Assembly (NCBI GenBank): GCA_041653515.1
Contig: JBAZFG010000001.1
Span: 74,332 to 138,331 of the forward strand
Direction: 5' to 3'
Source of the DNA: Candidatus Nanoarchaeia archaeon
Lineage (GTDB): Archaea > Nanobdellota > Nanobdellia > WJKC01
Length of the DNA: 64,000 nt
Every line of letters begins with the position of its first letter. Within the stretch, counting starts at the first letter, position 1. Positions 15,619 through 43,695 of this stretch are shown here, one piece after another. Position numbers and translations under genes: made by a program. The notes beneath the pieces are model-generated. The model made no database searches, was not told the DNA's origin, and was given only the letters and a program-made list of their open reading frames with translations.

Positions 15619-15825
15619 ATATGAGACGACTACGATAAACCAATAAATGATATAATAATAAATGGTGGAGACTGTTACGACTACACATTATTTTATGAAA
15701 ACTTAACAAAAGAATTAGGTTATAATACCACAAGAGTAGACTTACACTTCACAAATAACACACACAGACTATTAATCATCTATGACAAGACAAGCTATTG
15801 CACACTAGACTTAATAAACAAACCA

Positions 15826-16059: not shown

Positions 16060-16061
16060 AA

Positions 16062-16271
16062 TTATCCTCTTCTAACTTCCTTTAAGAATTCCTCAAAATT
16101 GAAATAATATTTTTTCTTACCCTTCTTGTTCCAATCAACTAGACCTTTTTCCTCCCAATTTTGCAATATTCTATTTACCATTTGTCGCGTTATTCCTAAT
16201 TCTGATGCTAGTTCATCAAGGTCTTTTTTACCCTTACATAAATTAAACTCGTCCCACGTGTTAAAATTCAT
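16062..16271 (-). CDS. small helix-turn-helix DNA-binding protein (69 aa)
   Basis: LASELGITRQMVNRIL HTH segment. Confidence 0.5.
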   Translation of the reverse strand: MNFNTWDEFNLCKGKKDLDELASELGITRQMVNRILQNWEEKGLVDWNKKGKKKYYFNFEEFLKEVRRG

Positions 16272-16277
16272 AAAACA

Positions 16278-17204
16278 TTATTTAATATTATACTCAAAAA
16301 GATAATCATTCCAATTACTATCATAACCTAACTCAAAAACTAATCTAGCAGAATTTAAATCCTTAGGGACTTCTTCAAATAAAACATAACCTTCTTGCTT
16401 AGTATTTTGGTACATATTTTTCCATGTATCTAGTGTTCCACCATAAGATTTTTCATATTGATTACCTTCTAAATCAAGAATAGCCATATTAGAAGGTGAA
16501 AAATAATCACTTTCAGAACCTATATTTTTTACAAAAAAATCAACTCTAAAGTATTCTTCAATAGTGAAATATGAACTTGTCTTAAAGAAACCAAAACTTT
16601 TTAATGTTACTTGAAAATTTCCTTTTGAAATAGTTTGATTAAAAATTGTTTTATTACTTTCATATTCTTCTTCGTATATTTGTTCTATCTCTTCATCAGT
16701 AAAAGAAGGAATTGAAACAAAACTATTATTAGCATTAAGATTCTTGCCATTAGAAGCTAAAAAAGTTATTTCAGCTTTACCATAAGTTGAAAATCCTTTT
16801 TCAATATCACTTTTTTGGACTCTCCATTCAAAAGCCTTGCCTATACTTTGTCCAGTTAATACAATCTGATAATCAACGAATTGAGAAGCAGTTACTGAAA
16901 ATGAATCTTCATAAAGCAAATTATTAAGGTTATCAAAAACTTTAAAGTTTAATTGACCATTAGCGGGTATTTTATTACCAGAAGCATCTTGCAACTGAAA
17001 ATAGAATCTTATTAAATCTGTTTCGTCAGCAGATGAAAAATCTATAATAGTAACTGGATTATACCTTGAATTAGTAACTGTTTGAGTAGTAGATTCTTGA
17101 TTATCAGGCAAATTATTAACAACACTATTACCAGTAGTGCCTGTGCAACCAGCAATAACTAACAAACCAAGTAAGCATAAAGAGGCTATGAGCTTATTAT
17201 TCAT
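16278..17204 (-). CDS. secreted lipoprotein-like protein (308 aa)
   Basis: Signal peptide with lipobox-like LVIAGC. Confidence 0.5.
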   Translation of the reverse strand: MNNKLIASLCLLGLLVIAGCTGTTGNSVVNNLPDNQESTTQTVTNSRYNPVTIIDFSSADETDLIRFYFQLQDASGNKIPANGQLNFKVFDNLNNLLYEDSFSVTASQFVDYQIVLTGQSIGKAFEWRVQKSDIEKGFSTYGKAEITFLASNGKNLNANNSFVSIPSFTDEEIEQIYEEEYESNKTIFNQTISKGNFQVTLKSFGFFKTSSYFTIEEYFRVDFFVKNIGSESDYFSPSNMAILDLEGNQYEKSYGGTLDTWKNMYQNTKQEGYVLFEEVPKDLNSARLVFELGYDSNWNDYLFEYNIK

Positions 17205-17363
17205 AAATAAGATATTAAATCATTATCTTTATTAAGCTTTTGTAAACTAAAAATTAATCATTCTATGGGTTTTATTTCTCAAATTAAGGTCTTGGTAATT
17301 CTTAGCTGGTAAATATTAGTCAGTTAAGAATAGCTGATAGTTTAATTATTGATTTTAAGATAT

Positions 17364-17765
17364 TTAAGTTATTTTCTTAAATTCCTCAATCCTTTTTGAA
17401 TGTTCAATTTCCCAGTCTTTATCAGACTCATTAGGCTTATAGCATTCTATAAATTCAATATTATTACTTATTGTTCTTAATAATTCTCTTGCTTTTTTTG
17501 TTGGGTGCGAAGCACATATGATTACATCACATCCTTTTTCTTTTAATGGAATTAAATATTTCTTTAGCCAAGCAGGAGCGTCTCCAACGCTACAAATCCC
17601 TATTATTTTTCCATTATGGATAAAACTTAAACAAAAATCTTTTCTTATTTTTGGTCTCAAAACACAAATACTTGATTTAAAATATTCTTCCAGAATTTTT
17701 TTTATTGTCGTGCTTTTACCAATTTTTGCTTTACCTTCAAAACAGATTATTTTAGGGTTATCCAT
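17364..17765 (-). CDS. mini P-loop NTPase / NMP-kinase-like protein (133 aa)
   Basis: Walker A GKAKIGKST right after the start MDNPKIICFEG. The ORF-track N-terminal extension (MLLNLVLI x3) is read-through of the tandem repeat and is rejected. Confidence 0.5.
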   Translation of the reverse strand: MDNPKIICFEGKAKIGKSTTIKKILEEYFKSSICVLRPKIRKDFCLSFIHNGKIIGICSVGDAPAWLKKYLIPLKEKGCDVIICASHPTKKARELLRTISNNIEFIECYKPNESDKDWEIEHSKRIEEFKKIT

Positions 17766-17790
17766 AAATAAATCAATAAAATCACTTTTT

Positions 17791-17886
17791 AAAAGCATTA
17801 TTAATACTAAATTTAAAAGCATTATTAATACTAAATTTAAAAGCATTATTAATACTAAATTTAAAAGCATTATTAATACTAAAAAA
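17791..17886. repeat. 24-bp tandem repeat, ~3.75 copies (aaaagcattattaatactaaattt), immediately upstream of the P-loop gene
   Basis: Perfect head-to-tail copies at 17791, 17815 and 17839, with a partial copy at 17863. Confidence 0.9.
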
Positions 17887-21454: not shown

Positions 21455-23114
21455 GTGTGTAGATATATTTTCCTTTTCCTTCTTTCCTAACAAAACCGTA
21501 GCGCTCGAATTGTATTATCTCACCTTCTTTGACTTTACTTGCGTAATCCTCACAAAGCCCTTTATCAATTAAGCCATCTGGTTTGAGCACGCTGCACTCA
21601 TGATTGCTCTTAGTCACGAATTGCACTTTCCTTATTTTATAAACCTCATCCTGGTCTTTAGCGTAAACCGCTCTGATTTCTTTGCCAACGCTCTTAACTT
21701 CAATATTCATTGAGTCCTTTAACCTAACCTGACATTCATTCTTGAGCAATTCAACATCACTTTCACTAATCCAGAAAGTATTAACCCCCTTCTCAATAAC
21801 ATAACTTCTGCTCTTATTAATCACGTGATGTAATGGTATTACCGCTTTCTTTTCCGGGCAACCACTTACTAATAATTTGACTGGGTCCTTAACAAAGAAG
21901 TAGCGCAGGCTCGCTGCGTCAATTAACCGACGGTTAATAGTGTATAATTTATCAACCGGGACTTTAACTTCATTCTCAGTTAAACCAATATCAAGCACGA
22001 ATTGCCTGACTGCTTCAGGCTTAATCCCCCTGCGCTTAAGACTCTGCAAACTCCACGTTCGAGGGTCATCCCAACCAGTGTACTCACCGCTTTTTACTTC
22101 GCGACTACTCTTGCTCTTACTAATCTTAACCCCTTCAACGCTAACTAATGAACTATGAACAATGACTGGTTCCTTCCAGCCCAAAATACCCCAGATTAAT
22201 CGCTCCATTTCATCCTCAATATACAAGTCCTTACCCCTAAGTATGTGCGTGATGCCAAGCAAGTGATCATCTACTGCCCAAGAGAATTCAAGCATTGGCC
22301 AAACACAATATTTAATCCCTGTCTTTGGGTGCGCTCGTTTGCTAATCCTAAGCAATACGCGGTCCCTAAACGCAGGGTTTTTGTGCTTCAAGTCAGTTTT
22401 TATTCTAACACAAGCCTCACCTTCATCATAACCCCCTGATAGCATCTTCTTCCATAAACGCTTATTCTCACTTACAGTATTATTCCTATGAAGACACTCC
22501 TTGCTCTTGGCTCGGTAATCCCTTATTAATTCAGTTGGGCACTCACAAACATAAGCCGCGCCTTTATCAATTAAGCTGGCCGCATACTTATAGAATAATT
22601 CCATTCGGTCTGACTTATAGATTATTGTTGGGTCAAACTTTACGCCGAGCCACTTCAAGCCCTGCGGTATCAACCTGTAAGCTGCTTTATCAATTGGCTT
22701 AGCTTCACTGCCAATAGTATCATCAATCACTAATATTAACTTACCTTTATACTTCTTAGCGTACTCATCATTCAATACTGCGGGCAATGCATTGCCAATG
22801 TGTAATGGCCCGCTCGGGAACGGCGCGAACCGCATGACTACTTTGCCTTTAATGCCTGGTAATTCTTTCAGGCCTTTGATTTCTTCTTTCTTCTCAAGCA
22901 ACTCAGGTGCTTGTGACATTAACTCATTAAGAATATTCTCAGGACTTAACTTATTAACTTGAGTAATAACCTCATTAATCCGTTTTATTAAGCCTTTAAT
23001 ATCCTTCTTTGATTCAGGCAATTCACCAATCACTTTAGGCATGACCGCGCCAAGAATTGCTTTGCCATGCTCATGAGCGTTCTTAAGTGCATACTTACGG
23101 ATAGTCTCATTCAT
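21447..23114 (-). CDS. gltX: glutamyl-tRNA synthetase, archaeal type
   Basis: HIGH motif FAPFPSGPLHIGNA and class I catalytic core; 555 aa. Confidence 0.9.
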   Translation of the reverse strand: MNETIRKYALKNAHEHGKAILGAVMPKVIGELPESKKDIKGLIKRINEVITQVNKLSPENILNELMSQAPELLEKKEEIKGLKELPGIKGKVVMRFAPFPSGPLHIGNALPAVLNDEYAKKYKGKLILVIDDTIGSEAKPIDKAAYRLIPQGLKWLGVKFDPTIIYKSDRMELFYKYAASLIDKGAAYVCECPTELIRDYRAKSKECLHRNNTVSENKRLWKKMLSGGYDEGEACVRIKTDLKHKNPAFRDRVLLRISKRAHPKTGIKYCVWPMLEFSWAVDDHLLGITHILRGKDLYIEDEMERLIWGILGWKEPVIVHSSLVSVEGVKISKSKSSREVKSGEYTGWDDPRTWSLQSLKRRGIKPEAVRQFVLDIGLTENEVKVPVDKLYTINRRLIDAASLRYFFVKDPVKLLVSGCPEKKAVIPLHHVINKSRSYVIEKGVNTFWISESDVELLKNECQVRLKDSMNIEVKSVGKEIRAVYAKDQDEVYKIRKVQFVTKSNHECSVLKPDGLIDKGLCEDYASKVKEGEIIQFERYGFVRKEGKGKYIYTHD

Positions 23115-23140
23115 AATAAAAAAGAGGAATTGTTTTGGAT

Positions 23141-24469
23141 TTATAAATCCAATTCTTGACCATCTTGAAGCAAGTGAACATCCTCGCCCAGTTTATACCC
23201 TAACTCATTAGCTAGTTTAACTGCACTGCTTAATTTCAGTAAGCCGCCATGACTTGGTATGTAATGCTGTGGCTTAATCATCTTCAAGAATTCCCGCATG
23301 CCTTCTCGGGCAACGTGACCACTAACGTGGACATCATCAAATATTCTTACTCCATGGCTTTTCAAGCTCTTAATTAACCGACTCTTGTTAGCTTCATTAA
23401 TCGGGCTTGGAATAGTCTCACTGCAGAAAACAACAATGTCATCTGGCAGTAATTTAAAACTCATTGTATCCTGAGATAACCTGACTAACATACTATTCGG
23501 CTCGCCTTGGTGGCCTGTCATTATTAAGAAATAATTACCCCTGCCATTGCGCTCTATTTCTTTAAACATCTTATCATTCTGCCTTGGGTGAACTAATATT
23601 GCTTCTTTAGTTATGTTAACCAAACCAACATTCTCAGCCGCAGTCACGTAATTAAACATGCTTCGACCAAGCAATACTGGCGTTCGTTTCATCTTAATAG
23701 CTGTTTTTATTAGTGTTGTTAACCTTGCTATATGACTAGCAAAAGTAGTGGTTATTACTGCTTTATTTTTTGAGTCAATAAAACTAAAAGTGTCTTCAAT
23801 CATGTTATTAAAAACACTTTCACTGTAAGTCCTGCCATCACGGTCAACCCTAGTTGAATCAGTGATTAAAGCTTTAACGCCTTTAGCAGCTAACTCCCTT
23901 AATCTTTTGTAATCAGTTTTCTGGCCTAACACTGGGTGTTCATCAAACTTAAAGTCAACTGCGTACAATAAATCACCTTCCGATGTATGTAAACAACTCA
24001 TCACTGTTTGAGGAATACTATGCGTAGCGTAGATGAATTCAACGCTTAATTTATCACTTATCTTGTAAGTGCTCTTAGCATTCAATTGAACTAAGTGCTT
24101 GAATAAACGGCTTTTCTTGCCTAATTTCTGTTTTAGTACTTCAAGTGTGAAAGCAGTCGCGATAACTGGTACGTTATATTTCTCAGCTATCTTATCAGCG
24201 CCCGCAACGTGGTCGAGGTGCGCGTGGTCAATAACTATTGCCTTGACTTGCTTGCCATACTTCTTGAAAAAAGCCCTATCATCAGGGATTACTTCCTCAA
24301 CATATAATGCTTCAGGAGGTAATTCCTCAGGATTAACACCTCTTTCTTGCAGTCTGATTAATTGGTCGACTGCTACACCAATATCAAATATCACTGTTTC
24401 ATTTCCGACAGTTACTGCGGTCATGTTCCTACCGAACTCGCTGTAACCACCTATTGCGTGTATTTTCAT
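23141..24469 (-). CDS. rnj: beta-CASP metallo-beta-lactamase ribonuclease (archaeal RNase J-like)
   Basis: HxHxDH motif (VIDHAHLDHVAG) and beta-CASP C-terminal His motifs; 442 aa. Confidence 0.8.
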   Translation of the reverse strand: MKIHAIGGYSEFGRNMTAVTVGNETVIFDIGVAVDQLIRLQERGVNPEELPPEALYVEEVIPDDRAFFKKYGKQVKAIVIDHAHLDHVAGADKIAEKYNVPVIATAFTLEVLKQKLGKKSRLFKHLVQLNAKSTYKISDKLSVEFIYATHSIPQTVMSCLHTSEGDLLYAVDFKFDEHPVLGQKTDYKRLRELAAKGVKALITDSTRVDRDGRTYSESVFNNMIEDTFSFIDSKNKAVITTTFASHIARLTTLIKTAIKMKRTPVLLGRSMFNYVTAAENVGLVNITKEAILVHPRQNDKMFKEIERNGRGNYFLIMTGHQGEPNSMLVRLSQDTMSFKLLPDDIVVFCSETIPSPINEANKSRLIKSLKSHGVRIFDDVHVSGHVAREGMREFLKMIKPQHYIPSHGGLLKLSSAVKLANELGYKLGEDVHLLQDGQELDL

Positions 24470-24585
24470 TTTAATATATCACCTTCATATTCTTTTATTA
24501 TTTAATAAGGTTTAGAATTTTTTCTCAAAACCCGTCTTATGGAAAAAGAATGCAATAACCTGTTTATAAGCTTTTTCATAAAAAT

Positions 24586-25086
24586 TTAATGGTTATTAAT
24601 AGATGGAACTGTTCCGTCATCAACTATTATTGAACTAATGTAATCATTTATTACTTTATAGTATAATTCGAGTTTTTTCTGTTTTTCAATACAATCATCG
24701 CATAACTTATTAGTGCAGGCGTCAATTATTGGCTGATAGGAATCTACAATCTTATCATATAATCTTTTGTAATTAACTAAGAATTCATTCTTGTTCTTTA
24801 TGTGCTCATTAGCTTTCCCACCATTATTAATATCTAAATGGTCTTTTATTATTTTATAAAGCACTTCATCAACGTTGGATAACTCATTAAATTCATAACA
24901 TAATTCATTTAGTGTTGTTAAGCAAATATCAAGCGTGTCAAACCTATCAAAACCTTTTATAGACTGACATTGCTTAACCCTTTTATAAGATTCTTTGTAA
25001 TTAATTATAAAATTCGCTATTGATAACCTTGCCTCGCCTTTCTTAAGCTCTATTCTGCCAAAAGGATTTTTATTCCTTGGTTTCAT
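24586..25086 (-). CDS. hypothetical Cys-containing protein (166 aa)
   Basis: ORF only. Confidence 0.35.
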   Translation of the reverse strand: MKPRNKNPFGRIELKKGEARLSIANFIINYKESYKRVKQCQSIKGFDRFDTLDICLTTLNELCYEFNELSNVDEVLYKIIKDHLDINNGGKANEHIKNKNEFLVNYKRLYDKIVDSYQPIIDACTNKLCDDCIEKQKKLELYYKVINDYISSIIVDDGTVPSINNH

Positions 25087-25158
25087 TAAGAGATTTTATT
25101 ATTATAACATTATAAAGATCATTGTAATTCAGTTCTCATTTTATCCCTGAACGCGCGA

Positions 25159-25340
25159 ATCATTAATGGGTGTATTAGTGGGTTCTTATCATACTCGACC
25201 GCAGGGAGAAGTATCCCCCTTCAGTCTTGAGAAACCCTGATTCCCCCTCTACGTTTATTTTGTCTTAATGGCGTTACTGATTAATTCCTTGAATTTTCTT
25301 ATCATTAGTGGGTGGATTAATGGGTTCTTGTCGTAATTGA
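25159..25340 (+). repeat. ~40-bp imperfect direct repeat (25159-25198 / 25301-25340, ~85% identity) flanking a GC-rich core (25199-25254) that contains ctgattccccctc
   Basis: The copy inside the gene encodes …YDKNPLIHPLMI of the radical-SAM/ArcS protein. The distal copy encodes the same peptide followed by an alternative tail, RAFRDKMRTELQ*. Confidence 0.65.
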
Positions 25341-26514
25341 TTTTATTCATTAATTGCTCGTCGCATAAATCTACTAATTTTATCCCCAGTTCCTTGCACG
25401 CGTTCTTCAAGCACTGACCTGACTCACTCTTTGGTTTATAATAAGAGAATACTTGCTCGTACTTATGAGCTGTTAAGTAATCCTTGACCCGTTGAGTGTT
25501 AATCCTAACATACTCTTTCATTACTTCTGGCGTCTCGTTCCGCTCATCCCAGTCGTAAGCGTTGAATGGGTACTTGTCAGCGAACTCAATTGGGATAACC
25601 CCTGGGTTGCTGATAACAATAATATGAGTATTCTTATACCAATCAAAACCAGTAATAGCGCGCCTGATTGAAACATGCGTCCGACTATTATAATAAGGCT
25701 TCTTCTTACTGCAAGGCAAGAACAAAGCAATAGTTTTGTTCAACGGCTTATTATACAAACGAACCAAGTAATCCTGCCAAACGTTAAAGTGAGGGTGAGT
25801 CACGAACTCAACCCCAACGCCATTTAAATCAGCCTTCTTCTCTAACGGGAATTTAGGCACGAACGCATAATTATTCGGCTCTAACTGAACGCTCTCATAC
25901 TTTTTTGTTCGCTTAAAAAACTCTTGCTCACTAATAGGCTTCCACTCACCTGCCACCCATAAATCAAACAAGCCTGACCTGGCGTGAGGAAAAGTATTAA
26001 TCAACACTATTTCATTACTATACTCGCGCGCTAAGGCAACGCTTTTATCCAATAACCCATCATAATCAAACGGGTGATTAATCAATAAGTATGACTTAAC
26101 TTTGAAGCCATGAGCGTGAACTCGCTCACAAGCCCTCTTATAAGCCTCAACCGTGATGCCCTTGTTTAATTTCTTCAATACTTCATTATCACCAGCCTCA
26201 AGCCCAATCGCCACTACTAATTTGACACCTTTGAACAAAGAGAGTTTCTCGTCAGTCACGTACTCTGGTCTTGACTCAATATACAAGACTCGACCCTGCA
26301 TTACTTTAGCCACATGAGTCTGGAATTTAATTGGGAATTGACAGTCATCCAATAATGAGCCACTGCAGAATAATTTAACATCACCCTCACCACTCTCCCT
26401 ATCAAACCTGTCAATTAACTCATTAGCACTAATATTAACATCATCCTTACCCCAACCACAAAACAAACACTTACCCCAAGAGCACTTGCCGGCGTTTAAC
26501 ACAATCTCTTTCAT
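25255..26514 (-). CDS. radical-SAM domain protein fused to an ArcS-type catalytic domain (PC-X3-KPY-X2-S-X2-H); putative archaeosine (G+) synthesis enzyme
   Basis: N-terminal Cys cluster CSWGKCLFC (Cx4Cx2C) and C-terminal LPCSKKKPYYNSRTH matching the ArcS signature. Divergent from arcTGT. Start placed at Met 26514 (MKEIVLNAGKC) to avoid overlap with tgtA. Confidence 0.6.
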   Translation of the reverse strand: MKEIVLNAGKCSWGKCLFCGWGKDDVNISANELIDRFDRESGEGDVKLFCSGSLLDDCQFPIKFQTHVAKVMQGRVLYIESRPEYVTDEKLSLFKGVKLVVAIGLEAGDNEVLKKLNKGITVEAYKRACERVHAHGFKVKSYLLINHPFDYDGLLDKSVALAREYSNEIVLINTFPHARSGLFDLWVAGEWKPISEQEFFKRTKKYESVQLEPNNYAFVPKFPLEKKADLNGVGVEFVTHPHFNVWQDYLVRLYNKPLNKTIALFLPCSKKKPYYNSRTHVSIRRAITGFDWYKNTHIIVISNPGVIPIEFADKYPFNAYDWDERNETPEVMKEYVRINTQRVKDYLTAHKYEQVFSYYKPKSESGQCLKNACKELGIKLVDLCDEQLMNKINYDKNPLIHPLMIRKFKELISNAIKTK

Positions 26515-26566
26515 AAAAAAATGGAATCCGTAACACTTTTTAAATACCTTGCGTATCACTTTGTTC

Positions 26567-28216
26567 ATGTCATTTGAAATCAAGGACCACGACGGCCTCG
26601 GCCGATTAGGCGTACTGACTGTTAACAATAAGTCAATCACTACACCTAACATTGCGGTAGTCATTAACCCTAATGACTTAACCATCCCCCCTGAAGAAAT
26701 GATGCGTGACTTCGGGGTTGATTTAATTATCACTAACGCCTACATTATTAAAAACTCAAAAAAAGCCAAGGACATTGAAGCTAAAGGATTGCACGAATAC
26801 CTTAATTTCCCCGGCATTATTTACACTGACTCAGGCACTTACCAGATGTTTAGCAAGGGCGGTGCTGCCATCACTAACGAGGAAACACTCGCTTACCAAA
26901 CTAAAATTGGGAGTGATATCCACACGCCACTTGATTTATTCACACTGCCAGATGATGACAGGGCAACCGCAGTCAGCAAACTTACTGAAACAATCAAGCG
27001 GATTAAAGCCATAAGAACAACTAATTTCTCAGCCCCAATACAAGGCGGCTCGTTCATGGACCTGCGAGCTAAAGCCTGCAAAGAACTAGCCAAGGTTAAA
27101 CCAACTGTTTACCCAATTGGCGGTATCGTACCATTAATGATTAGCTATGATTTTAAACGATTAATTGAAGTAATCCTTGAGTGCAAAAAACACTTACCCT
27201 TAAACACACCTGTTCACGCTTTCGGCGCTGGTCACCCGCTTATCTTTGCCTTACTCGCTTACGCAGGAGTTGACTTATTTGACAGCGCTAGTTACGCGTT
27301 ATACGCCAAGGAAGCTAAGTACATCACTGAGACTGGCACAATGAAAGTGGATGAGTTAGTCTCACTGCCTTGTAATTGCCCTATTTGCGCTAAGCATAAG
27401 CCAAGCGATTTGCGCGACGTTGGCTTACTAGCCCGACATAACTTGCACGCCTTAATGAGAGAAGTAAGGTTAGTTAGACAAGCCATTCAGCAAGACCGAT
27501 TATTTGAATTAGTAATGTCAAGAGCGATGAGCCACCCAAACGTTTACTTTGCGTTTAAACGATTGCTTGAGTATAAAGAATTAATCAGCGAGCATAACCC
27601 TATTCGTAAGAGAAACGCTTTATTCTGGACTGGAGCTTTGAGTAGTGAGCGACCTGAGATTAATTATGCTAATAACCAACTTAAATTACTTAAACTAAAA
27701 AAAGCACCCAAACCATTAAAACTAGTTTACCCTTTTGGTCAGAACGTTGGCTGGAGTATTGATTATTCAGTAAAAAATTATGATGACTTAGCAACCCTTC
27801 GATTAATGGCTGATTACCAATTCGGTGCTGGCGCTGGACTAAAATTAATCCCTGACAATGTCACCATTATTAAAAGCCGTAACCAGCGATTACATGAAGT
27901 ATTACTTAAAAATGAATTATTATTCATCGTCCGCGCCCGTGATGGTTACTTTGCACTACATAAAGCTGGCGCGAAACGATTAAAACAATACTTAAAAAAA
28001 GTGGTCGCGCCAGATGAATATAAAGAGTTTTACCAAAAAGGCGGCGACGTGTTCGCCAAACACGTGCTTAAAGCAAACAACATTAAGCCGCGCGAGGAAG
28101 TCGGTGTTTATTGCGGCAAAGAATTAGTCGGGGTCGGCGAGGCAACACTATCAAGCCGTGAGATGATTGTTTTTGATAAAGGCGTGGCTGTTAAGACACG
28201 TGAAGGAATAAAATAA
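26567..28216 (+). CDS. tgtA: archaeosine tRNA-guanine transglycosylase (arcTGT) with C-terminal PUA domain
   Basis: MSFEIKDHDGLGRLG N-terminus, Zn site CNCPICAKH, ~550 aa. Confidence 0.9.
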   Translation: MSFEIKDHDGLGRLGVLTVNNKSITTPNIAVVINPNDLTIPPEEMMRDFGVDLIITNAYIIKNSKKAKDIEAKGLHEYLNFPGIIYTDSGTYQMFSKGGAAITNEETLAYQTKIGSDIHTPLDLFTLPDDDRATAVSKLTETIKRIKAIRTTNFSAPIQGGSFMDLRAKACKELAKVKPTVYPIGGIVPLMISYDFKRLIEVILECKKHLPLNTPVHAFGAGHPLIFALLAYAGVDLFDSASYALYAKEAKYITETGTMKVDELVSLPCNCPICAKHKPSDLRDVGLLARHNLHALMREVRLVRQAIQQDRLFELVMSRAMSHPNVYFAFKRLLEYKELISEHNPIRKRNALFWTGALSSERPEINYANNQLKLLKLKKAPKPLKLVYPFGQNVGWSIDYSVKNYDDLATLRLMADYQFGAGAGLKLIPDNVTIIKSRNQRLHEVLLKNELLFIVRARDGYFALHKAGAKRLKQYLKKVVAPDEYKEFYQKGGDVFAKHVLKANNIKPREEVGVYCGKELVGVGEATLSSREMIVFDKGVAVKTREGIK

Positions 28217-28698: not shown

Positions 28699-28769
28699 GC
28701 GTTCGTAGTCTAGTGGTAGGATCTCAGCCTTCCAAGCTGATGACCTGGGTTCGAATCCCAGCGAGCGCA
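28699..28769 (+). tRNA. tRNA-Gly (anticodon UCC)
   Basis: Cloverleaf read by eye: acceptor GCGTTCG/CGAGCGC, anticodon loop CUUCCAA, T-arm GGGTTCGAATCCC; no encoded CCA. Confidence 0.85.
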
Positions 28770-33893: not shown

Positions 33894-34586
33894 ATGGATT
33901 TAATTGAATTATTGAAGGATAAGAAGGCTATCTTGTTTGATTGGGATGGAGTCTTGTTTAATTCATTGCCTGCTCATTTGAAGCACGCTAAGCATTGCTG
34001 TGAGGCGCGCGGCATTATTAATCACCCTGTTTTTGAGTCAATGAAGGCTTATCGTGAGTTCCTGAGTGATTGCCCGGGCCATTTCTCTGAGATTTATAAA
34101 AAACTAGGCATTGATTACATGCTTAATCATGAGCAAATAACTAATGATTTCATTAAGTTCATGAATGATTCTTCTCTTGAATTATTTGACGGCGCTTATG
34201 AATTGCTTTGTGATTTAAAAGAGCATTACTTGGTTGGCTTGGTTACTTCATCATTCCGCGAGAGTGTTATCCCGCGTTTGCCTTATGGTTTTAATTTTCA
34301 TAGTGAAGTTTTTGCTGGCGAGGCAGCGTCAAAACCAGCGCCTAACGGCATCATTAAGTGCTTGGCTGAGCTTGACGTTAAACCTGAGGAAGCGGTTTAC
34401 GTTGGTGACATGATTAGTGATGCCCAAGCAGCTAGTGCTGCAGGGGTTAGTTTCATTGGTGTGACGTATGGTTATAATAATCATCAAGCACTGGCAGCCC
34501 AACCGCACTTATTAATTGTTGACAGTGTCGAAACGCTTAAAAAGACCCTGCTTACTTATAGTAGATTGTCAGCGACCATAACTTAA
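33894..34586 (+). CDS. HAD-superfamily hydrolase
   Basis: Motif I LFDWDGVLFNS and motif IV GDMISD. The 3' end overlaps the 5S rRNA. Confidence 0.75.
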   Translation: MDLIELLKDKKAILFDWDGVLFNSLPAHLKHAKHCCEARGIINHPVFESMKAYREFLSDCPGHFSEIYKKLGIDYMLNHEQITNDFIKFMNDSSLELFDGAYELLCDLKEHYLVGLVTSSFRESVIPRLPYGFNFHSEVFAGEAASKPAPNGIIKCLAELDVKPEEAVYVGDMISDAQAASAAGVSFIGVTYGYNNHQALAAQPHLLIVDSVETLKKTLLTYSRLSATIT

Positions 34587-34682
34587 GGGGTACCACCCGT
34601 TCTCATCCCGAACACGGAAGTTAAGCCTTTAAGTGTTATAACCTGTACTGTGTAATACATGGGAACGTTATAAGTTGCCGAC
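34568..34682 (+). rRNA. 5S ribosomal RNA (stand-alone)
   Basis: CCACCCGTTCTCATCCCGAACACGGAAGTTAAGC matches the universal 5S helix II/III-loop C region. Terminal helix GTCAGCGAC/GTTGCCGAC; ~115 nt. Confidence 0.8.
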
Positions 34683-34751
34683 ATCTATTTTTTTTTAAAT
34701 TACACTAGTGCTAACTAAGAACTTTTATAAAATAGTACATTTTACTATAGA

Positions 34752-37057: not shown

Positions 37058-37297
37058 ATGAATGTTGGTTTTAAAATCGCTGGCGTTATCTGTTTAGTCC
37101 TAGGTGTTATTGGCGCCTTAGGTGTTTTAGGAACAACTAACCCATTGAGCATTATTAGTGACCCATTATTTAACCTAACTAAATTATTCCTCACTGACAG
37201 CGGCTCATTCTTCCTATGGGTCTTTATCATCGTGCTTGGCTTAACGCTCGTTGGCCCAAGTAAAGGTTTTATTAAAGGCATGGCTACGCGAAAGTAA
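37058..37297 (+). CDS. small membrane protein (79 aa)
   Basis: 2 TM helices. The stop codon lies inside DR1 of the downstream element. Confidence 0.4.
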   Translation: MNVGFKIAGVICLVLGVIGALGVLGTTNPLSIISDPLFNLTKLFLTDSGSFFLWVFIIVLGLTLVGPSKGFIKGMATRK

Positions 37298-37369
37298 GCT
37301 TTATTAAAACAAAGGGGCTGTGCCCCTCTTGACTCCCCCTTTCTTTGAAAGTAAGCTTTATTAAAACAA
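37290..37369 (+). repeat. perfect 23-bp direct repeat (37290-37312 / 37347-37369) flanking a 34-bp GC-rich hairpin insert containing cttgactccccct
   Basis: gaaagtaagctttattaaaacaa occurs twice and includes the stop codon of the upstream gene. The insert has an AGGGGC-tgt-GCCCCT hairpin. Confidence 0.75.
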
Positions 37370-37389
37370 GACTACTATGTTCTTAATCA

Positions 37390-37662
37390 ATGGGGCTTGA
37401 TGATTGGGAAGATATTATTCCAGGGATTGTTATTGTAATATCCATTTTAGCTTTAATTGGTGGGATAGCTAATTTCGTGCCAGCCATTAAGTCAGTGACT
37501 TGGCTTTATACTATCACTAATTTTTTCAACAATATCTTCATGTATGTAGCAGCTGTAATAACACCTTACATACCACTTCAAGCAATCTATATGGCAATAA
37601 TTATTGAGATATTAATGATAATATTTAGCATCATCTTCATACTAAAAGTAACAGTCTTATAG
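37390..37662 (+). CDS. small membrane protein (90 aa)
   Basis: 3 TM helices. Confidence 0.4.
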   Translation: MGLDDWEDIIPGIVIVISILALIGGIANFVPAIKSVTWLYTITNFFNNIFMYVAAVITPYIPLQAIYMAIIIEILMIIFSIIFILKVTVL

Positions 37663-37699
37663 TAAGGATTATTAAATCATCCTTCTTTCTAATTAAATC

Positions 37700-37924
37700 A
37701 TGGCGTCAAGAGTATTAGGGTTCTTCCTTGGTTTATTATTCATTGCCTTGTCATTAGTGCCTTTCGTTGACTCATACTTGAAGAACACTGTAATAACAAC
37801 CATTGCTGGTTATTACAGAACTTACTCATTATGGGTATTGCCAATACCAAGCATTGTATTATTCTTAGTAGGATTATTCTGCTTACAGAGTGCAATTAGG
37901 GATACATGGCCCTTTTATGGTTAA
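37700..37924 (+). CDS. small membrane protein (74 aa)
   Basis: 2 TM helices. Confidence 0.4.
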   Translation: MASRVLGFFLGLLFIALSLVPFVDSYLKNTVITTIAGYYRTYSLWVLPIPSIVLFLVGLFCLQSAIRDTWPFYG

Positions 37925-37936
37925 AAAAAAAAGAAT

Positions 37937-38701
37937 TTATTTATTGTAAGTTATTTTATCAGCCATCTTCATACCGTTATTAATATCACTTGATGTGACA
38001 GCGGTACCAAGATCCATTATTGGCACGTTAATAACTTTATCAGTTAATATTTTTTTATTAGTGAAAGAACCTTGGTCAAAGAATACAAAAATTCTTACAG
38101 TATTCTTTGTTTCAAAATCAATTATTGGCACAAATAAAGGCATTTGACCTGAATGGATTATTTTAAATAGATTAGGTTTAGTAACTGTTTTCTTACCCTC
38201 TTTGAATACTTTTCTTAAACCAACTGCTGGTTTATCAAAGTCATTTAAAACCTTTTCAAAATCACCTTTAGTTCCATAAGACTTGAAAATAATCTCAATA
38301 GCCCTTTGGCCCAAGCCTCTCTTCTTATTTTCCAATTTCTTCCAAGCTTTTTGTATATCATCACCAATTAGGTCATACAAATCAGCAGAAGGCCCTACTT
38401 TTAATTGAGGTATTGAGATTAATCCATTCTTTACAGATTCTTTAAAGTAATCTCTATTCTTGACACCTGAAATATCACTTGATACATCAATTAATACTAT
38501 TAAAATTGCTGTATTATGTTCTTTAGTTTCAGCGTAAATTACTGCAAAATTTTTGTAAGCTTCATCAAAGTGGTAATCAACATTTTTTAAGCCTCTGCCA
38601 ATACCAAATTTTTTCCCTTTAAGGTCACTAAGAACACCTTGCATATCGCCTGGGTTCTTAAAAGTAAATACCATGGTTTTTAATTCATTTAGGGCAACCA
38701 T
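37937..38701 (-). CDS. hypothetical protein (254 aa)
   Basis: ORF only. Confidence 0.4.
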   Translation of the reverse strand: MVALNELKTMVFTFKNPGDMQGVLSDLKGKKFGIGRGLKNVDYHFDEAYKNFAVIYAETKEHNTAILIVLIDVSSDISGVKNRDYFKESVKNGLISIPQLKVGPSADLYDLIGDDIQKAWKKLENKKRGLGQRAIEIIFKSYGTKGDFEKVLNDFDKPAVGLRKVFKEGKKTVTKPNLFKIIHSGQMPLFVPIIDFETKNTVRIFVFFDQGSFTNKKILTDKVINVPIMDLGTAVTSSDINNGMKMADKITYNK

Positions 38702-38781
38702 GTTTTATTCAAAGTTCTCTCTTTCTTATATATCTTTCTTTTAGAAATCTTTAAATAATTCATTGTCATTTCTTTTTCGGA

Positions 38782-38949
38782 ATGAAGTGCGAGTTATGCT
38801 CCCGTGAGGTTAGTCAGGTGATTCGGTGTCAAATCTGTGATACTCGTTTCTGCCCTGATTGTGGTGATTATGAGCGCTCGCTGTGCAGGGATTGCATTGA
38901 TTTTAATGACGCGCTTGACGGTGACATAGGCGACCTTAATGAATCGTAA
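38782..38949 (+). CDS. small double zinc-ribbon protein (55 aa, four CxxC pairs), absent from the ORF track
   Basis: MKCELCSREVSQVIRCQICDTRFCPDCGDYERSLCRDCIDFNDALDGDIGDLNES; GC-richer than its surroundings. Its 3' end overlaps the hydrolase gene start by 11 nt. Confidence 0.45.
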   Translation: MKCELCSREVSQVIRCQICDTRFCPDCGDYERSLCRDCIDFNDALDGDIGDLNES

Positions 38950-39607
38950 AGAATTAATTGATAGTAATGGTTTTAGGGTTAAACTAAATATTCATAACCC
39001 TTCAGCTAGGAAGACGGTTATTTTTAGTCATGGTTTTCTTAGTAATAAAAACAAATACTTTCTTCAGAGCACTGCTAAAGTAATGGCTCGGCGTGGTTAT
39101 CGTTGTGTTCGTTTTAATTATAAGACTGAGGATATTAGTGACCGATTATTAATTCTTGACGCAGTATTGAATCATATTAGTAAGTCCAGTGACTCAGTGG
39201 GTTTGGTTGGCTCTAGCTTGGGTGGTATGGTGTCCCTTATTACTGCTGTTAAACCAATCATTAAGTCTTTAGTTTTATTAAACCCAGTTTATTATCAGGA
39301 TAAAGTTTATCGTAATTACGTTGCTCATCACTCATTGCTTAAGCGATTGTTTAACAAAAAAGTAGGGTTAGAATTCTTTAAGTATGACTTGCAATCAATT
39401 GTTAAGCGATTAAATAAACCAGTATTAATTATTACTGGGGGTAAGGATGATATTGTTGATTACCGCACAATGAATGGTTTGTATAACGACCTTAAGGGTG
39501 AGAAGCGATTAGTAGTGCTTGATGATTGCGGTCACTCTATCTGGCGCCCAGACCACGTTAGGATTACTCGTAGAGAAATAATTGATTGGTTCAGGAAAAC
39601 ACTCTAA
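38939..39607 (+). CDS. alpha/beta-fold hydrolase
   Basis: GSSLGG nucleophile elbow and a C-terminal DDCGHS His region. Confidence 0.7.
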   Translation: MNRKELIDSNGFRVKLNIHNPSARKTVIFSHGFLSNKNKYFLQSTAKVMARRGYRCVRFNYKTEDISDRLLILDAVLNHISKSSDSVGLVGSSLGGMVSLITAVKPIIKSLVLLNPVYYQDKVYRNYVAHHSLLKRLFNKKVGLEFFKYDLQSIVKRLNKPVLIITGGKDDIVDYRTMNGLYNDLKGEKRLVVLDDCGHSIWRPDHVRITRREIIDWFRKTL

Positions 39608-39849
39608 TTTATTACATACTGTTTTCAGATGAATTACTTGATGTATATTTTAAAACAATTAAATAGCTTATAACTATTATAAGTCCAATTATTCCAATTA
39701 TTATCGAAAAACCGATTATATTCATAATATTTAAAAATATATCCAAGAAAAGTTTAGTCATGTCCATCATATTATTCTATGAATTATAGTTTATAAACTT
39801 TATTTTAGAATTGGTATATTTGTGTAATTCTTGCCGTCTTTTAGTGTCT

Positions 39850-40110
39850 TTATCCAAGGTCTTCTTCTTGGATGACAACGAAGTCGCCGACTGCAATAAC
39901 ACTGCTAAAAGGTATCTGGATGATGCCATCCTTATTGGCTTCTAATTCAAAAGTGCTGGTGTAAGATGTAGGTGAATCAAGCAGTATGTAGATTAACTCA
40001 CCAGTTCTCGTCTCAAAGACTACATCACCGACTTTACCGAAAGTCTTGCCAGTCTTACTGACAACTGTTTTACCAATAATATTCCTTGAGATTATTCGCT
40101 CATCAGCCAT
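39850..40110 (-). CDS. PRC-barrel domain protein
   Basis: 86 aa; IIGKTVVSKTGKTFGKVGDVVFE pattern typical of archaeal PRC-barrel proteins. Confidence 0.55.
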   Translation of the reverse strand: MADERIISRNIIGKTVVSKTGKTFGKVGDVVFETRTGELIYILLDSPTSYTSTFELEANKDGIIQIPFSSVIAVGDFVVIQEEDLG

Positions 40111-40159
40111 AAGAATTAATTATTGGCTCTTTTTATTTAAACCTTTCGAGAACTATTAG

Positions 40160-40816
40160 TTAAAAATCCTTGAAATAAGTTAAGAATAACATGGCAACCA
40201 TCACTATTAACCCGATGACCCCAGCGATTAAAGGGTTGATTAATAGTGTTAAACCAAAGATAACACTGGTTGAGATAATCATTGAAATCCAGACCATTCG
40301 TGACCACATAATTATTTTACTGCCGTCAAGCGGTGGGAACGGCACTAAGTTGAATAAAGCCAGGATGAAGTTAAGGGTGACGCCATAAATTAGTATAGGG
40401 TAATAAGGCGCTAATAAAGCACATATAACACCCATTAAAACATTACTTGCCGGGCCAGCCAGACTAATCTTACCCATTTCCTCAAGCGATAAATTAACAA
40501 ATTTATAACCAAGCCTTGTCTGGTAATAAGTGCTGATGCTAACAAAACCAAGTGCGGCGAAAATAAAGTTACCCCTAGTGATTAAACTAATAATTAAAGA
40601 GAATAATACTCCTTGCGGCCATAAAACGTACTCAGCTTTACAATCAAATGATTCAGCCACTAATTTATGGCTTAACTCATGAATAATAAAAGCTGTGCCA
40701 GCAATAATTGTTATTGGGAGAAAATAATTAAAGTTATTCATTGAGAAGATGAAGCCTAAAACCAAGGTTGATACTAATAAACTACCTAATTCCCGCCAAG
40801 TGAATGTGAACCTCAT
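40160..40816 (-). CDS. site-2 protease (M50) family membrane metalloprotease, minimal form
   Basis: HELSHK in a TM helix and PFPPLDGSKI second motif. Confidence 0.65.
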   Translation of the reverse strand: MRFTFTWRELGSLLVSTLVLGFIFSMNNFNYFLPITIIAGTAFIIHELSHKLVAESFDCKAEYVLWPQGVLFSLIISLITRGNFIFAALGFVSISTYYQTRLGYKFVNLSLEEMGKISLAGPASNVLMGVICALLAPYYPILIYGVTLNFILALFNLVPFPPLDGSKIIMWSRMVWISMIISTSVIFGLTLLINPLIAGVIGLIVMVAMLFLTYFKDF

Positions 40817-41661
40817 TTAATCACGCTGTTAATATAATAAATCTCTGGTTGCCCGAACCGATGCGTTATCTTACCGCATAATAAAATTACATCCCCATTG
40901 CTTAAATTGTTTTCCAACACCCACAAGCCTTTCCAGACAGTAATATTACTTGTCTCATCACATAGTTTGAATACTTGATATTCATTACCGCTTGATGAGT
41001 TAGTTAAGTTAATCTCACTACAAATAGTAGCGTTAACTAATACGTTATTCTCACCTGGTAATAAACTAATTAAATTAATTTTCATTAAGTCAGCGTTACA
41101 ACCAGTCACAGGATAAAAGAATAATATTGCTAACCAACTAATCATAAAAATATTAACCCCCCAGAAAGCCCTACCTTTTTTTAATGAAAACAAGAACTCG
41201 CTGATACTATCCTTATTAATTATTACGATAATAGCGCCAAGGATTAACCCGCCATTAACTAATAAGTCATCCCAAGAGGCTAGGTTGAAACTATAATTAG
41301 GCCCAATTGGCCATAATAACGGCACGCCCATTGGCGTTATGGTGTCAAGCATTAAGTGCGATGCTAAACCAATCAGTAACGCGTAACCGCTTCGCTTGCC
41401 TTTAAACTTCCATACAACTAAGCAAGTGATTATTACGAATAATAATGAGTGGGTAATTGTTCGGTGCTGGATGCCAATAACATAATCAAGGTCAGGTATT
41501 ATTGCGCCAAGAATAACAGTAATAGGATTAAGCATTAACGCCTCGCTTAATGCAACCCCAATTATTGCGTGAGTGATTAAGTTCACGTCAGGCTTCGCCT
41601 TCCTCTGTCCTGTCGGACAGCCATCACCCTCTCCAGTCGCTCCTTTGTTCCTGTTGGACAA
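40813..41661 (-). CDS. membrane-bound metal-dependent hydrolase (YdjM/COG1988-like) with extracellular C-terminal domain
   Basis: ITHAIIGVALS…IPDLDYVIGIQHRTITHS motifs. The N-terminal 30 codons are GC-rich and palindromic, so the true start may be the internal GTG (~41571). Confidence 0.5.
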   Translation of the reverse strand: MSNRNKGATGEGDGCPTGQRKAKPDVNLITHAIIGVALSEALMLNPITVILGAIIPDLDYVIGIQHRTITHSLLFVIITCLVVWKFKGKRSGYALLIGLASHLMLDTITPMGVPLLWPIGPNYSFNLASWDDLLVNGGLILGAIIVIINKDSISEFLFSLKKGRAFWGVNIFMISWLAILFFYPVTGCNADLMKINLISLLPGENNVLVNATICSEINLTNSSSGNEYQVFKLCDETSNITVWKGLWVLENNLSNGDVILLCGKITHRFGQPEIYYINSVIK

Positions 41662-41683
41662 CCGTTAACAATCACTTCTAGTA

Positions 41684-42184
41684 TCATAAGTACCTCAGCG
41701 AGTTTAATGCATTGAAACCATCCATGCCTGGTATTGGCAGTAAATTAATTATTGCTAACCACCAATTAATCACCCTTAATGAGTTAATAAAATCAGCGTT
41801 AGCCTGAACCCAGTTAACGTTGTTGAACTTTTTTAATAAGAGTGTTGTGATGCCAAAGATTGCTAAGTTAGTGAGTGGTCCTGCGAGCGCTGTTAAAACG
41901 TAAACTAATGCGCTAGCGTTACCACTAATACTAACGTAAGCTGGGACAAAAAATACTGGTGCTCCAATAAACCTAAGCACTAAGCCTAACCCCAACCCTT
42001 GATAATTAGCGTGGTAAACTGCTTGCAAGCCACCCGCTATTGCAACAAACTTATGACCTAACTCATGCAATACAATGCTTAAGCCTGCGAGCAGGAATGA
42101 TTGTTTTGGCTTGCCTTTAACTAAAGGCATTAGTATGAAACCCGCAGCTATGATTGTGATTATTATTTCAATTATTTCGAGCAT
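41684..42184 (-). CDS. M50-family (site-2 protease-like) membrane metalloprotease, short paralog
   Basis: LHELGHKFVA and LLPIPGMDGFNAL motifs. Confidence 0.6.
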   Translation of the reverse strand: MLEIIEIIITIIAAGFILMPLVKGKPKQSFLLAGLSIVLHELGHKFVAIAGGLQAVYHANYQGLGLGLVLRFIGAPVFFVPAYVSISGNASALVYVLTALAGPLTNLAIFGITTLLLKKFNNVNWVQANADFINSLRVINWWLAIINLLPIPGMDGFNALNSLRYL

Positions 42185-42275
42185 AAAAATAATTGATGTG
42201 TCATTTCATTAAAAGATTTTTCAAAAAAAACAGTTTAAGTAACATATATATTGTAAAAAGCATTATTTAATTACT

Positions 42276-43019
42276 GTGAGGGTGGAACCACACTTGCGTA
42301 TAAGCAAAGGTGATATTAATGAGCGTTGTATAATCGTTGGTGACCCTAGTCGAGTCCTTAAAATAACTAAGCACTTAAGCGATGTTAAAAAAATTGGTGA
42401 TAACCGCGGTTTCATCACTTATAATGGTGTTTATTCTGGTGTGCCAATAACTGTTGCTTGCACTGGCATTGGTGGCCCAAGCGCGGCTATTGTTATCGAG
42501 GAATTAATTAATTGCGGGGCTAAAATTATTATTCGCGTTGGCAGTGGCGGGGTGATGCGCGAGGAGATTGAAACCGGTGATTTAGTGATTAGTACTGGTG
42601 TTTGTAAAGAAGAGAAATCAACCAAGGCTTACGTGCCTCATGGTTTTGCAGCAGTGCCTAATTATGACGTGCTTAACGCTTTGATTAATAGCGCTTTTCA
42701 GTCAGGTAAGCGTTTTTATTATGGCTTAACTATGTGCACTGATTCTTTCTATGCTAAAACACATCATGATAAAATGGTTGAGTGGGGAGCGTTAAATGTA
42801 ATTGGCAGTGACATGGAGTCATCAATGTTATTCACTTTAGCTGCGATTAAAGGTGTTAGAGCAGGATTCATTTTTTATGCTGGGCTTAATATTTCACGCA
42901 AACAAAAACATGGTGATATTATTAAGCAGGAATCAAAGCGTTTAGCTGGTGAGGAAAACGCTATCATGGTTGCGCTTAATGCAATGAAGAAATTAAAAGG
43001 AGGTGATTTAATTGGCTAA
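42276..43019 (+). CDS. purine/uridine nucleoside phosphorylase (PNP/UDP family 1)
   Basis: GDPSRV…GIGGPSAAIVIEEL…SGGV…DMESS motifs. Confidence 0.8.
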   Translation: MRVEPHLRISKGDINERCIIVGDPSRVLKITKHLSDVKKIGDNRGFITYNGVYSGVPITVACTGIGGPSAAIVIEELINCGAKIIIRVGSGGVMREEIETGDLVISTGVCKEEKSTKAYVPHGFAAVPNYDVLNALINSAFQSGKRFYYGLTMCTDSFYAKTHHDKMVEWGALNVIGSDMESSMLFTLAAIKGVRAGFIFYAGLNISRKQKHGDIIKQESKRLAGEENAIMVALNAMKKLKGGDLIG

Positions 43020-43695
43020 GAAAAAGAGTAAGAAAGCAGTTGTTAAGTCAAAGAAAAAAGTTGTTGCTAAGTCAAAGAGCAAGACTGTTGCTAAGAAAGG
43101 TCTTTGGAATAAACTTAAAGCTGAGTTCACAACTACCGCAATAGTCCTGATACCAATCGCTATTGGTATTAATCAAGTTGGCAGGCTTATTTCAACAGCA
43201 CTTGGACTACCTATATTCCTTGATACTATCGGAACCGTTTTCATGGCAATGCTAGCCGGCCCTTGGGTTGCAGGCGTTGGTGGTTTCTTAACTAACGTGG
43301 TAACCGCTATTGCTTACGGTCGAGCGACATCAATTTTCTTTGGTGTAGTTCAGTTATTCGTTGGTTTGATTGCAGGATGGTTTGTCTATAACGGTTGGCT
43401 TAAGAAACTATGGTCTGTGTTCACGACTGGTGCTTTGATTGCAGTAATAGCTTCACTAGTTAGTGCTTTAATGGTTGTTGCAGTCAGGGGCGGAGTGTCA
43501 GGCACAGGTGTTGATGCTGTAGTAGCATTCTTCCTGGCTTCAGGAACTGGTTTCTGGACTTCAATAGTGTCTGCAAGGATTATTACTGAGATGATTGATA
43601 AGATTATTGCAGTGTTCGTTCCTTGGATTTCAATCAAGAGACTACCTGAGAAATACGCTAGATTGTTCAAGTACACTAGTAAGATTAGGGATTAG
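43012..43695 (+). CDS. ECF-transporter S-component-like membrane protein with Lys-rich N-terminal tail
   Basis: 6 TM helices, immediately upstream of ecfT/ecfA/ecfA'. N-terminus KKKSKKAVVKSKKKVVAKSKSK. Confidence 0.5.
   Translation: MAKKKSKKAVVKSKKKVVAKSKSKTVAKKGLWNKLKAEFTTTAIVLIPIAIGINQVGRLISTALGLPIFLDTIGTVFMAMLAGPWVAGVGGFLTNVVTAIAYGRATSIFFGVVQLFVGLIAGWFVYNGWLKKLWSVFTTGALIAVIASLVSALMVVAVRGGVSGTGVDAVVAFFLASGTGFWTSIVSARIITEMIDKIIAVFVPWISIKRLPEKYARLFKYTSKIRD

Follow-up and report, generated by a model that had tools for sequence, protein, structure and literature searches.

The subject of this analysis is a short duplicated segment at a gene boundary of a Nanoarchaeia (DPANN) archaeon, located in a 64-kb stretch of a metagenome-assembled genome (MAG, locus-tag prefix WC307) that is referred to here as the window. 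Together with contig L185, which lies upstream, the window gives a view of about 70 kb (70.5 kb) of this genome. Genes are tightly packed in it: the median spacing of same-strand genes is 26 nt, and 3 of the 11 convergent gene pairs overlap, by 32-44 nt. At the boundary in question, hereafter locus A, the end of a gene for a small membrane protein and the promoter of the next gene are found twice, on either side of a GC-rich hairpin. The locus is composed of the following features:

37058-37297, plus strand: open reading frame (ORF) of a 79-aa small membrane protein, ending inside repeat copy 1, which holds its last two codons and its TAA (37295-37297)
37290-37312, plus strand: direct repeat copy 1, GAAAGTAAGCTTTATTAAAACAA, containing the stop codon as well as a TATA-like TTTATTAA (37300-37307) that is now displaced
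37313-37346, plus strand: insert A, 34 bp, AGGGGCTGTGCCCCTCTTGACTCCCCCTTTCTTT, with the hairpin at 37313-37327 followed by CTTGACTCCCCCTTTCTTT
37347-37369, plus strand: direct repeat copy 2, with TTTATTAA at 37357-37364, starting at -33 of the ATG at 37390
37390-37662, plus strand: ORF of the downstream 90-aa membrane protein, probably leaderless

A first-pass annotation of this DNA had described a perfect 23-bp duplication, including the TAA of the 79-aa gene, around a 34-bp GC hairpin, and both parts of this description are borne out. The window contains exactly two copies of the 23-mer GAAAGTAAGCTTTATTAAAACAA, with 0 mismatches between them, and the bases next to them differ (c/t before, a/g after), so the repeat measures exactly 23 bp. 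The expected number of chance matches is 0.00 (100 dinucleotide shuffles). No further match with up to 3 mismatches is found on either strand of the window, and the repeat is therefore not the generic AT-rich motif that the annotation had considered as a way in which its claim might fail. The outer flanks are ...GGCTACGC to the left of copy 1 and GACTACT to the right of copy 2, and AGGGGCTGTGCC is the sequence to the right of the joint between copy 1 and the insert (37312/37313). Insert A has a GC content of 59% versus 36% for the window. Its first 15 bases form the hairpin AGGGGC-TGT-GCCCCT, with a 6-bp stem, a 3-nt loop and a predicted RNA folding energy of -9.6 kcal/mol; on the minus strand the motif AGAAAGGGGGAGT, discussed below, precedes the hairpin.

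The repeat packs the upstream stop together with the downstream core promoter, in the arrangement TAA-GC-TTTATTAA. In the window, starts of TTTAWWWW cluster at -28 to -34 before 15 start codons, a distribution that by sequence matches the TATA boxes of archaeal genes with a short leader or none, and the 79-aa ORF, which has no Pfam match, possesses a TATA-like box of its own at -32. The TTTATTAA of copy 2 lies at the usual promoter distance (-33) and would thus be the working core promoter of the 90-aa gene. The TATA box of copy 1 faces a GC hairpin where the DNA must melt, so that promoter activity there has probably been lost or weakened. Removal of the insert and of one copy of the repeat would leave locus A with a 35-nt spacer.

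The annotation also placed this structure in a family, and that assignment stands. At least four gene boundaries of like build are present in the approximately 70 kb viewed, namely A, B (10927-11051) and D (25119-25335) in the window and C 4.5 kb upstream of it. Their repeats differ in length: 23 bp at A, 26 bp at C, 35-41 bp at B and about 75-81 bp at D. Besides locus A, the family comprises these features (L184 and L186 are contigs of an independent assembly introduced below):

10927-10961, plus strand: B repeat copy 1, a relic 3' end of the minus-strand GTPase-like gene, reading DDNTSPRIIGVIRN up to a stop
10962-11016, plus strand: B insert, 55 bp, GC-rich, with the hairpin GGGGGA-CAGAT-TCCCCC (10969-10985) followed by ACTCCGCCCCTTTCT; confirmed in L184
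11017-11051, plus strand: B repeat copy 2, the functional 3' end of the GTPase-like gene 10995-11888 (minus strand)
25255-25335, minus strand: D functional copy, the last 27 codons of the radical-SAM/DUF5591 gene (25255-26733)
25194-25254, minus strand: D insert, about 61 bp, GC-rich, with TAGAGGGGGAATC and the hairpin AGGGGGA-TACT-TCTCCCT; confirmed in L186
25119-25193, minus strand: D displaced second copy, the last 25 codons, reading YDKNPLIHPLMIRAFRDKMRTELQ up to a TGA that abuts the TATA box of the next gene
L185 1997-2102, about 4.5 kb upstream of window position 1: locus C, with the perfect 26-bp repeat TTTGTGGTTAAGAAAAAGTAATTATT

Locus B lies between two convergent genes. The copies of its 35-nt repeat are 91% identical (30/30 core with one mismatch), and copy 1 overlaps the stop of the Dus gene (10928-10930), the overlap being 14 nt. 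The GTPase-like gene now runs on from copy 2 into the insert, from which it takes its last 6 codons and its current stop, and ends in ..GIIKQKGAE; copy 1 reads ..GVIRN before its stop, and homologs of the protein end in GIIK, GIIKK or GIIDQ. At locus C, the repeat holds the last six codons and TAA of the fibrillarin gene plus part of the TATA box of the thermosome gene, and encloses a 54-bp AT-rich insert with the hairpin CAAGCTTTT...AAAAGCTTG.

Locus D is the most informative about origin. No ORF with a start codon covers its second copy. Within their first 13 codons (YDKNPLIHPLMIR) the two copies show 8 nucleotide differences, all 8 of them synonymous and including an AGA/CGC pair, an outcome with a probability of about 1e-5 for 8 random substitutions. 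Moreover, the tail of the relic (RAFRDKMRTELQ) has the same length as that of the ortholog in the relative L178 (RSFKEKIAKELT). As the copies differ synonymously, they diverged while both were parts of working genes. Judged from these codons, D is an assembly of two diverged alleles and not the product of in-place duplication followed by neutral decay. It is the oldest member of the family. The sense RNA of the D insert folds into two hairpins (-23.3 kcal/mol, z = -2.3, with G·U pairs) versus -11.2 for the opposite strand.

The three GC-rich inserts, which are the sole intergenic GC islands of the window, share a common design. On the plus strand each consists of a hairpin followed by RAYTCC(G)CCCCTYT, and on the minus strand of RGA-R(1-3)-GGGG followed by a hairpin. 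In 70.5 kb there are 5 occurrences of the corresponding pattern [AG]GA[AG]{1,3}GGGG, all of them minus-strand, and 4 of the 5 fall in the inserts of A, B (twice) and D. Of 2000 composition-preserving shuffles, 21 reached the similarity seen between the A and B inserts. In B and D, but not in A, the G-run follows a GTAG or CTAG. On these sequence features, the inserts of A, B and D are related.

Loci B and D have counterparts in relatives. In the distant relatives L178, L180 and L181 (64-67% protein identity) the GTPase-like gene overlaps its convergent neighbour by 23 bp and the hairpin is absent; in L178 the stop of the radical-SAM gene overlaps the ATG of the next gene, again with no insert. 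Loci B and D are thus compact and insert-free in distant relatives. In the latter, Dus is located 1.5 kb further from the GTPase-like gene, from which it follows that the GTPase/Dus junction of the window lineage is itself derived. Compared with the 64% relative (L178:10001-13374), a 199-aa gene and one Na/Ca-exchanger gene are missing from the window lineage and from its closest relative; with these genes lost between the GTPase-like gene and Dus, B sits on a derived deletion junction. The closest relative (L172-L176; 85% identity, five separate assemblies) has an identical 17-nt B hairpin followed by CCTTGGGATGAT, with 29 of 30 bases identical versus about 75% in coding DNA. That the hairpin is more conserved than the surrounding coding DNA suggests that it is kept by selection. 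This relative does not have 21 nt of the B insert. After a shared GATGAT its sequence continues into its own Dus end, whereas the window passes into the relic gene end, whose first six bases are likewise GATGAT, an arrangement consistent with a joint at a 6-nt microhomology. Two readings fit locus B: a 41-bp duplication before the split, with a later loss of 29 nt by slippage in the relative, or the joining of a donor resembling the relative to a compact resident at the 6-nt microhomology.

Independent support comes from Logan contigs of run SRR18595300 (short-read; a 31-mer graph is assumed), which are 100% identical to the window in all overlaps:

L062, window 37313-43216: takes in insert A, repeat copy 2 and downstream sequence
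L184, window 8225-17817: spans family member B intact
L186, window 22267-26364: spans family member D intact

From 37313 rightwards, the insert, copy 2 and the right flank of locus A are therefore reproduced exactly. The junction of copy 1 with the insert is present in the MAG contig only, and L062 begins precisely at this joint, which favours an assembly artefact or a chance repeat at locus A. We nevertheless consider such an origin very improbable: zero matches are expected by chance, the architecture is common to four loci of which B and D are spanned intact, and gene ends and promoter spacing are coherent. The start of L062 had been considered as evidence of several copies and was downgraded, given that 37313 is also the first base of the hairpin stem and that L177, from a relative, ends inside the B hairpin. 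Stops of contigs at GC hairpins may reflect other copies or variants, or a hairpin-related effect on coverage or fold-back. Furthermore, L062 is unbranched through the right flank, copy 2 and the whole insert, which argues against an abundant empty allele in that sample.

The 254-aa protein encoded at 37937-38701 (minus strand) matched itself alone among 5.8 billion proteins, and exact look-ups of the 170-aa, 79-aa and 50-aa (alternative start) proteins returned no record. In 185,579 species genomes, which do not include that of the window, the pattern CCCCTCN{3,12}ACTCCN{0,2}CCCTTTCT had 108 matches, approximately the estimated chance number, and none of these had flanking repeats. Some bacterial matches have a similar hairpin and ACTCCCCCTTTCT but lack such repeats, and were treated as unrelated. 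Among bacteria, the Dehalococcoidales MAG W31_56 carries a multi-copy element, GAGGGGGAAAGAGTTTGAGAGAGGGGC-loop-CCCCTCTCTC..ACTCCCCCTTTCT, that resembles insert A and has no flanking repeats (contigs L072, L092, L093, L098, L105, L106, L122, L140, L164, L167 and L170). Hairpins of the form GGGGC-loop-GCCCCTCTGNACTCCCCCTTTCT, also without flanking repeats, are found in several other Chloroflexi and Firmicutes genomes (L096, L123, L125, L127, L066 and L165). IMG/VR contained no match to insert A or to the 23-bp repeat; 61 matches of a looser pattern were set aside as one phage promoter-like family. About 60 viral contigs of IMG/VR (L001-L061) have cTTGACA-N13-CCCCTCAnACTCCCCCTTTCTTTTAGGGGTTTCTTTT in common, in which a -35-like box leads into a conserved C-rich block and then a small, T-run-bearing hairpin. 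The arrangement as a whole resembles a conserved promoter or leader of phages; it surfaced solely because the search pattern matches it. Rfam returned nothing at A, B or D.

We tentatively prefer, with somewhat less than even confidence, to explain locus A as a genuine duplicative insertion at a gene boundary, probably a recent one, generated by illegitimate recombination or template switching and not by a dedicated transposase. The recent date that the annotation had read from the perfect repeats fits their identity. Illegitimate recombination is favoured over a classical transposon or Cas1-Cas2 because the duplications vary in length, copies are few, and neither terminal inverted repeats nor, in the window, mobility genes are present; the result at D points the same way. 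Ancestrally, locus A would have been compact, only 2 bases separating the stop of the 79-aa gene from the TATA box that serves its downstream neighbour. A short GC-rich spacer from a gene end, composed of a hairpin, a C-run and a T-rich tail, would then have been joined after ...AAAACAA; the 34 bp may have been templated by a further copy elsewhere in this genome or by related-strain DNA. If synthesis or joining re-entered the resident sequence 23 bp upstream of the point of exit, the stop and promoter segment would be doubled with the cassette in between, copy 1 retaining the stop and copy 2 retaining the promoter at its normal -33 spacing. Only events that double such packed signals would survive, which would explain why the repeats always span a stop and a promoter or a convergent gene end. 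Known routes that could lead to this outcome are homology-facilitated recombination with one microhomology joint and the integration of ectopic single strands at microhomologies in replication. Indeed, ectopic single strands have been shown to join at microhomologies during replication, with indels of variable size from 3 to about 100 bp (bioRxiv 10.1101/2023.11.22.568220).

By the insertion, the 79-aa gene would have gained a 3' hairpin and a pyrimidine/T-rich tract that may serve in termination, 3'-end protection or insulation, the roles that we regard as likely for these hairpins. In intrinsic terminators, a U-run directly follows a stable GC hairpin beyond the stop codon. The A hairpin lies 15 nt after the TAA and a U-rich tract (CCCUUUCUUU) starts 9 nt past the stem; in L172 the B hairpin is directly followed by the T-rich TTCTATTTAATTATT on the sense strand of Dus.

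Several observations weigh against an origin of locus A by illegitimate recombination. The view is confined to about 70 kb of one genome. No relative of the 254-aa and 170-aa neighbours was found in the JGI metagenomes, and for locus A the searched collections hold no related genome, no empty site and no insert-free relative. There is no donor copy of insert A within the window. The perfect repeats at A and C are equally explained by target duplication of the transposition type, and the common motif and uniform chromosomal orientation seen in the inserts of A, B and D are what copies of a single mobile element would show. The insert of C is unrelated in sequence to the GC-rich inserts, and the family may thus mix two things. 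Finally, relative to the upstream genes A presents the C-rich strand and D the G-rich strand as sense, which makes one RNA-level function not obvious.

The annotation had implied a mobile element with target-site duplication, which survives as one option. It would take the form of a non-autonomous mini-element of about 34-60 bp, made of a G-run and a hairpin and moved by an enzyme encoded elsewhere; widely and variably staggered cuts would create long target duplications of variable length, and selection would retain those covering a stop and promoter. In addition to the perfect repeats of A and C and the uniform orientation, the near confinement of the motif to the inserts of A, B and D and their absence in distant relatives speak for such an element, and the stop of the Logan contig at the first insert base could mean further copies, although that base is also the first of the hairpin and, with L177 ending inside the B hairpin, the stop may be an assembly effect. 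Precedent exists in the IS1634/IS1549 family, which is common in Euryarchaeota and generates direct repeats of 8-514 bp on insertion (PMC2266710). Its members resemble the present loci in the long direct repeats of variable length and in their frequency in archaea, but they measure 1.5-2 kb and encode a DDE transposase, and neither such a gene nor such ends were seen here. The implied element is further at odds with duplications that range from 23 to about 80 bp without a fixed length (23, 26, 35-41 and about 75-81 bp), and with the lack of terminal inverted repeats in A (AGGGGC... / ...CTTTCTTT), B and D, where the internal hairpin is the sole inverted repeat. Its copies should be near-identical, whereas the hairpins of A, B and D differ and C is unrelated; there are only 3-4 copies in 70 kb (3 related and 1 unrelated), and the scan of species genomes remained at chance level. 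None of the approximately 60 window ORFs encodes a transposase, integrase, Cas protein or reverse transcriptase, and the synonymous-only divergence of the D gene ends, which points to coding constraint, is predicted neither by simple in-place duplication nor by a neutral target duplication. We know of no miniature IS1634/IS1549 derivative that behaves like these inserts. Overall, a mini-element is possible but unlikely. We judge it similarly doubtful that DPANN archaea harbour an unrecognised tiny mobile cassette, a stop-proximal G-run and hairpin of 34-60 bp with very long, variable target duplications. Such a cassette would double the overlap of stop and promoter (or of convergent ends), pull packed genes apart and provide 3' hairpins, and the fact that all copies point the same way along the chromosome would suggest a single-strand mechanism coupled to replication.

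Alternatively, the loci could be scars of allele replacement from a related strain or species by homology-facilitated illegitimate recombination, an incoming gene end with its hairpin spacer having entered by a homologous crossover on one side and an illegitimate joint upstream of the resident end, which would be displaced as 'copy 2'. Locus D fits, its copies being like orthologs about 20% apart that differ only synonymously in 13 codons, with a relic tail as long as that of the L178 ortholog. At B, the relic GVIRN is a typical homolog C-terminus, the functional copy extends into the insert (GIIKQKGAE), and the closest relative has the hairpin and CCTTGGGATGAT followed by a different flank. 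The DNA of that relative is also richer in GC (45% vs 36%), as GC-rich imported spacers would lead one to expect, though local GC content does not settle whether DNA was imported. At A, however, the identical 23 bp reach 15 bp past the stop into the promoter, and a donor with the same promoter and then the hairpin would be odd. At a divergence like that of B, we estimate that 23 and 26 identical bases at A and C would each be about 2% likely, and no donor lineage is known for A. Overall, this scenario is unlikely, much as the mini-element is. Far more remote is the off-target integration of a CRISPR spacer ('neo-CRISPR'), in which Cas1-Cas2 would have inserted a 34-bp spacer and doubled 23 bp. 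The 23/34/23 dimensions do resemble a repeat-spacer-repeat unit, and events of this kind are documented in E. coli (Nivala et al., 2018, as cited in PMC6698737 and bioRxiv 10.1101/148544). Here, by contrast, the repeat consists of a gene end and a promoter, and the other loci, with duplications of 26, 35-41 and about 75-81 bp around inserts of 54-61 bp, are incompatible with one ruler. The 'spacers' are related, GC-rich and equipped with a common motif and hairpin, no cas gene lies in the window, IMG/VR lacks both repeat and insert, and the Rfam CRISPR-DR match scores 13 bits versus a threshold of 37. A tandem duplication with a decayed middle was discarded, the 34 bp resembling neither flank while the repeats are perfect, as was translational bypass, the landing codon being again followed by TAA. 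By eye, no convincing match pointed to an origin of the hairpins from a tRNA T-arm or the 16S 3' end.

Small hairpin repeats such as REP/BIME, MITE-like and Rickettsia palindromic elements share with the present loci short GC-rich stem-loops at gene ends and, as at B, can extend or replace protein C-termini; the GTAG/CTAG before the G-run in B and D may correspond to the head motif beside their palindromes. They differ in being high-copy, with conserved sequence or terminal inverted repeats and with target duplications that are absent or 2-10 bp long, whereas here 3-4 copies without terminal inverted repeats and with duplications of 23 to about 80 bp are found in 70 kb. In particular, REP/BIME have a high copy number, no target duplication and a RAYT gene, in contrast to the low copy number, the long duplications and, in the ORFs of the window, the absence of a Y1 transposase. 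The mobile GC clusters in yeast mitochondrial DNA are likewise short GC-rich hairpin inserts with small AT-rich target duplications in an AT-rich compact genome, yet they are organellar and eukaryotic, their target duplications span a few bases and their copy number is high. In integrase attL/attR sites, repeats that restore a gene 3' end flank an integrase-encoding element; at locus A a gene end is also included, but only 34 non-coding bp lie in between. Illegitimate recombination, in its homology-facilitated form and in short-patch double illegitimate recombination or template switching, has in common with the loci the insertions of variable size at microhomologies, which need no element-encoded enzyme, the pairing of a long-homology side with a microhomology side (which we infer for B) and the displaced old gene end (D). 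It differs in having been described as rare laboratory events in bacteria (bioRxiv 10.1101/2023.11.22.568220).

In ultra-compact genomes, where stops, promoters and convergent gene ends share bases, a new intergenic signal should be hard to add. The loci display a concrete route by which this can occur: the shared segment is doubled and a hairpin spacer is set between the copies. Within the approximately 70 kb viewed of this Nanoarchaeia genome, at least four boundaries have undergone such an event; a sister species has retained older copies, and two proteins had their C-termini rewritten. To our knowledge, a recurrent duplication of stop and promoter with related imported hairpins has not been described so far. 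If driven by an element, the loci would represent a novel class of mobile DNA, marked by target duplications that are long and variable; if recombinational, they would record, as legible scars, the replacement of genes between lineages of DPANN archaea, a group in which recombination is hardly understood.

The remaining gene content of the window is that of the archaeal core, with PCNA, the exosome, the proteasome, aminoacyl-tRNA synthetases, Elp3, RNase J and ribonucleotide reductase. GC content is 28-34% to the right of locus A versus 38-48% to its left, and the right side is rich in orphan genes. The only Rfam matches in the 64 kb are a 5S rRNA (34568-34683) and one tRNA-Gly(TCC) (28699-28769); the 5S rRNA gene (72.8 bits) directly follows a HAD hydrolase gene and stands apart from 16S and 23S genes. 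Positions 17764-17883 hold a perfect tandem array of 24-nt units (TTTAAAAGCATTATTAATACTAAA), four to five in number. Each unit carries an ATG on the minus strand, and the array thus multiplies the start region of the ORF at 17364-17870, in whose N-terminal part MLLNLVLI is repeated; L184 terminates within this array.

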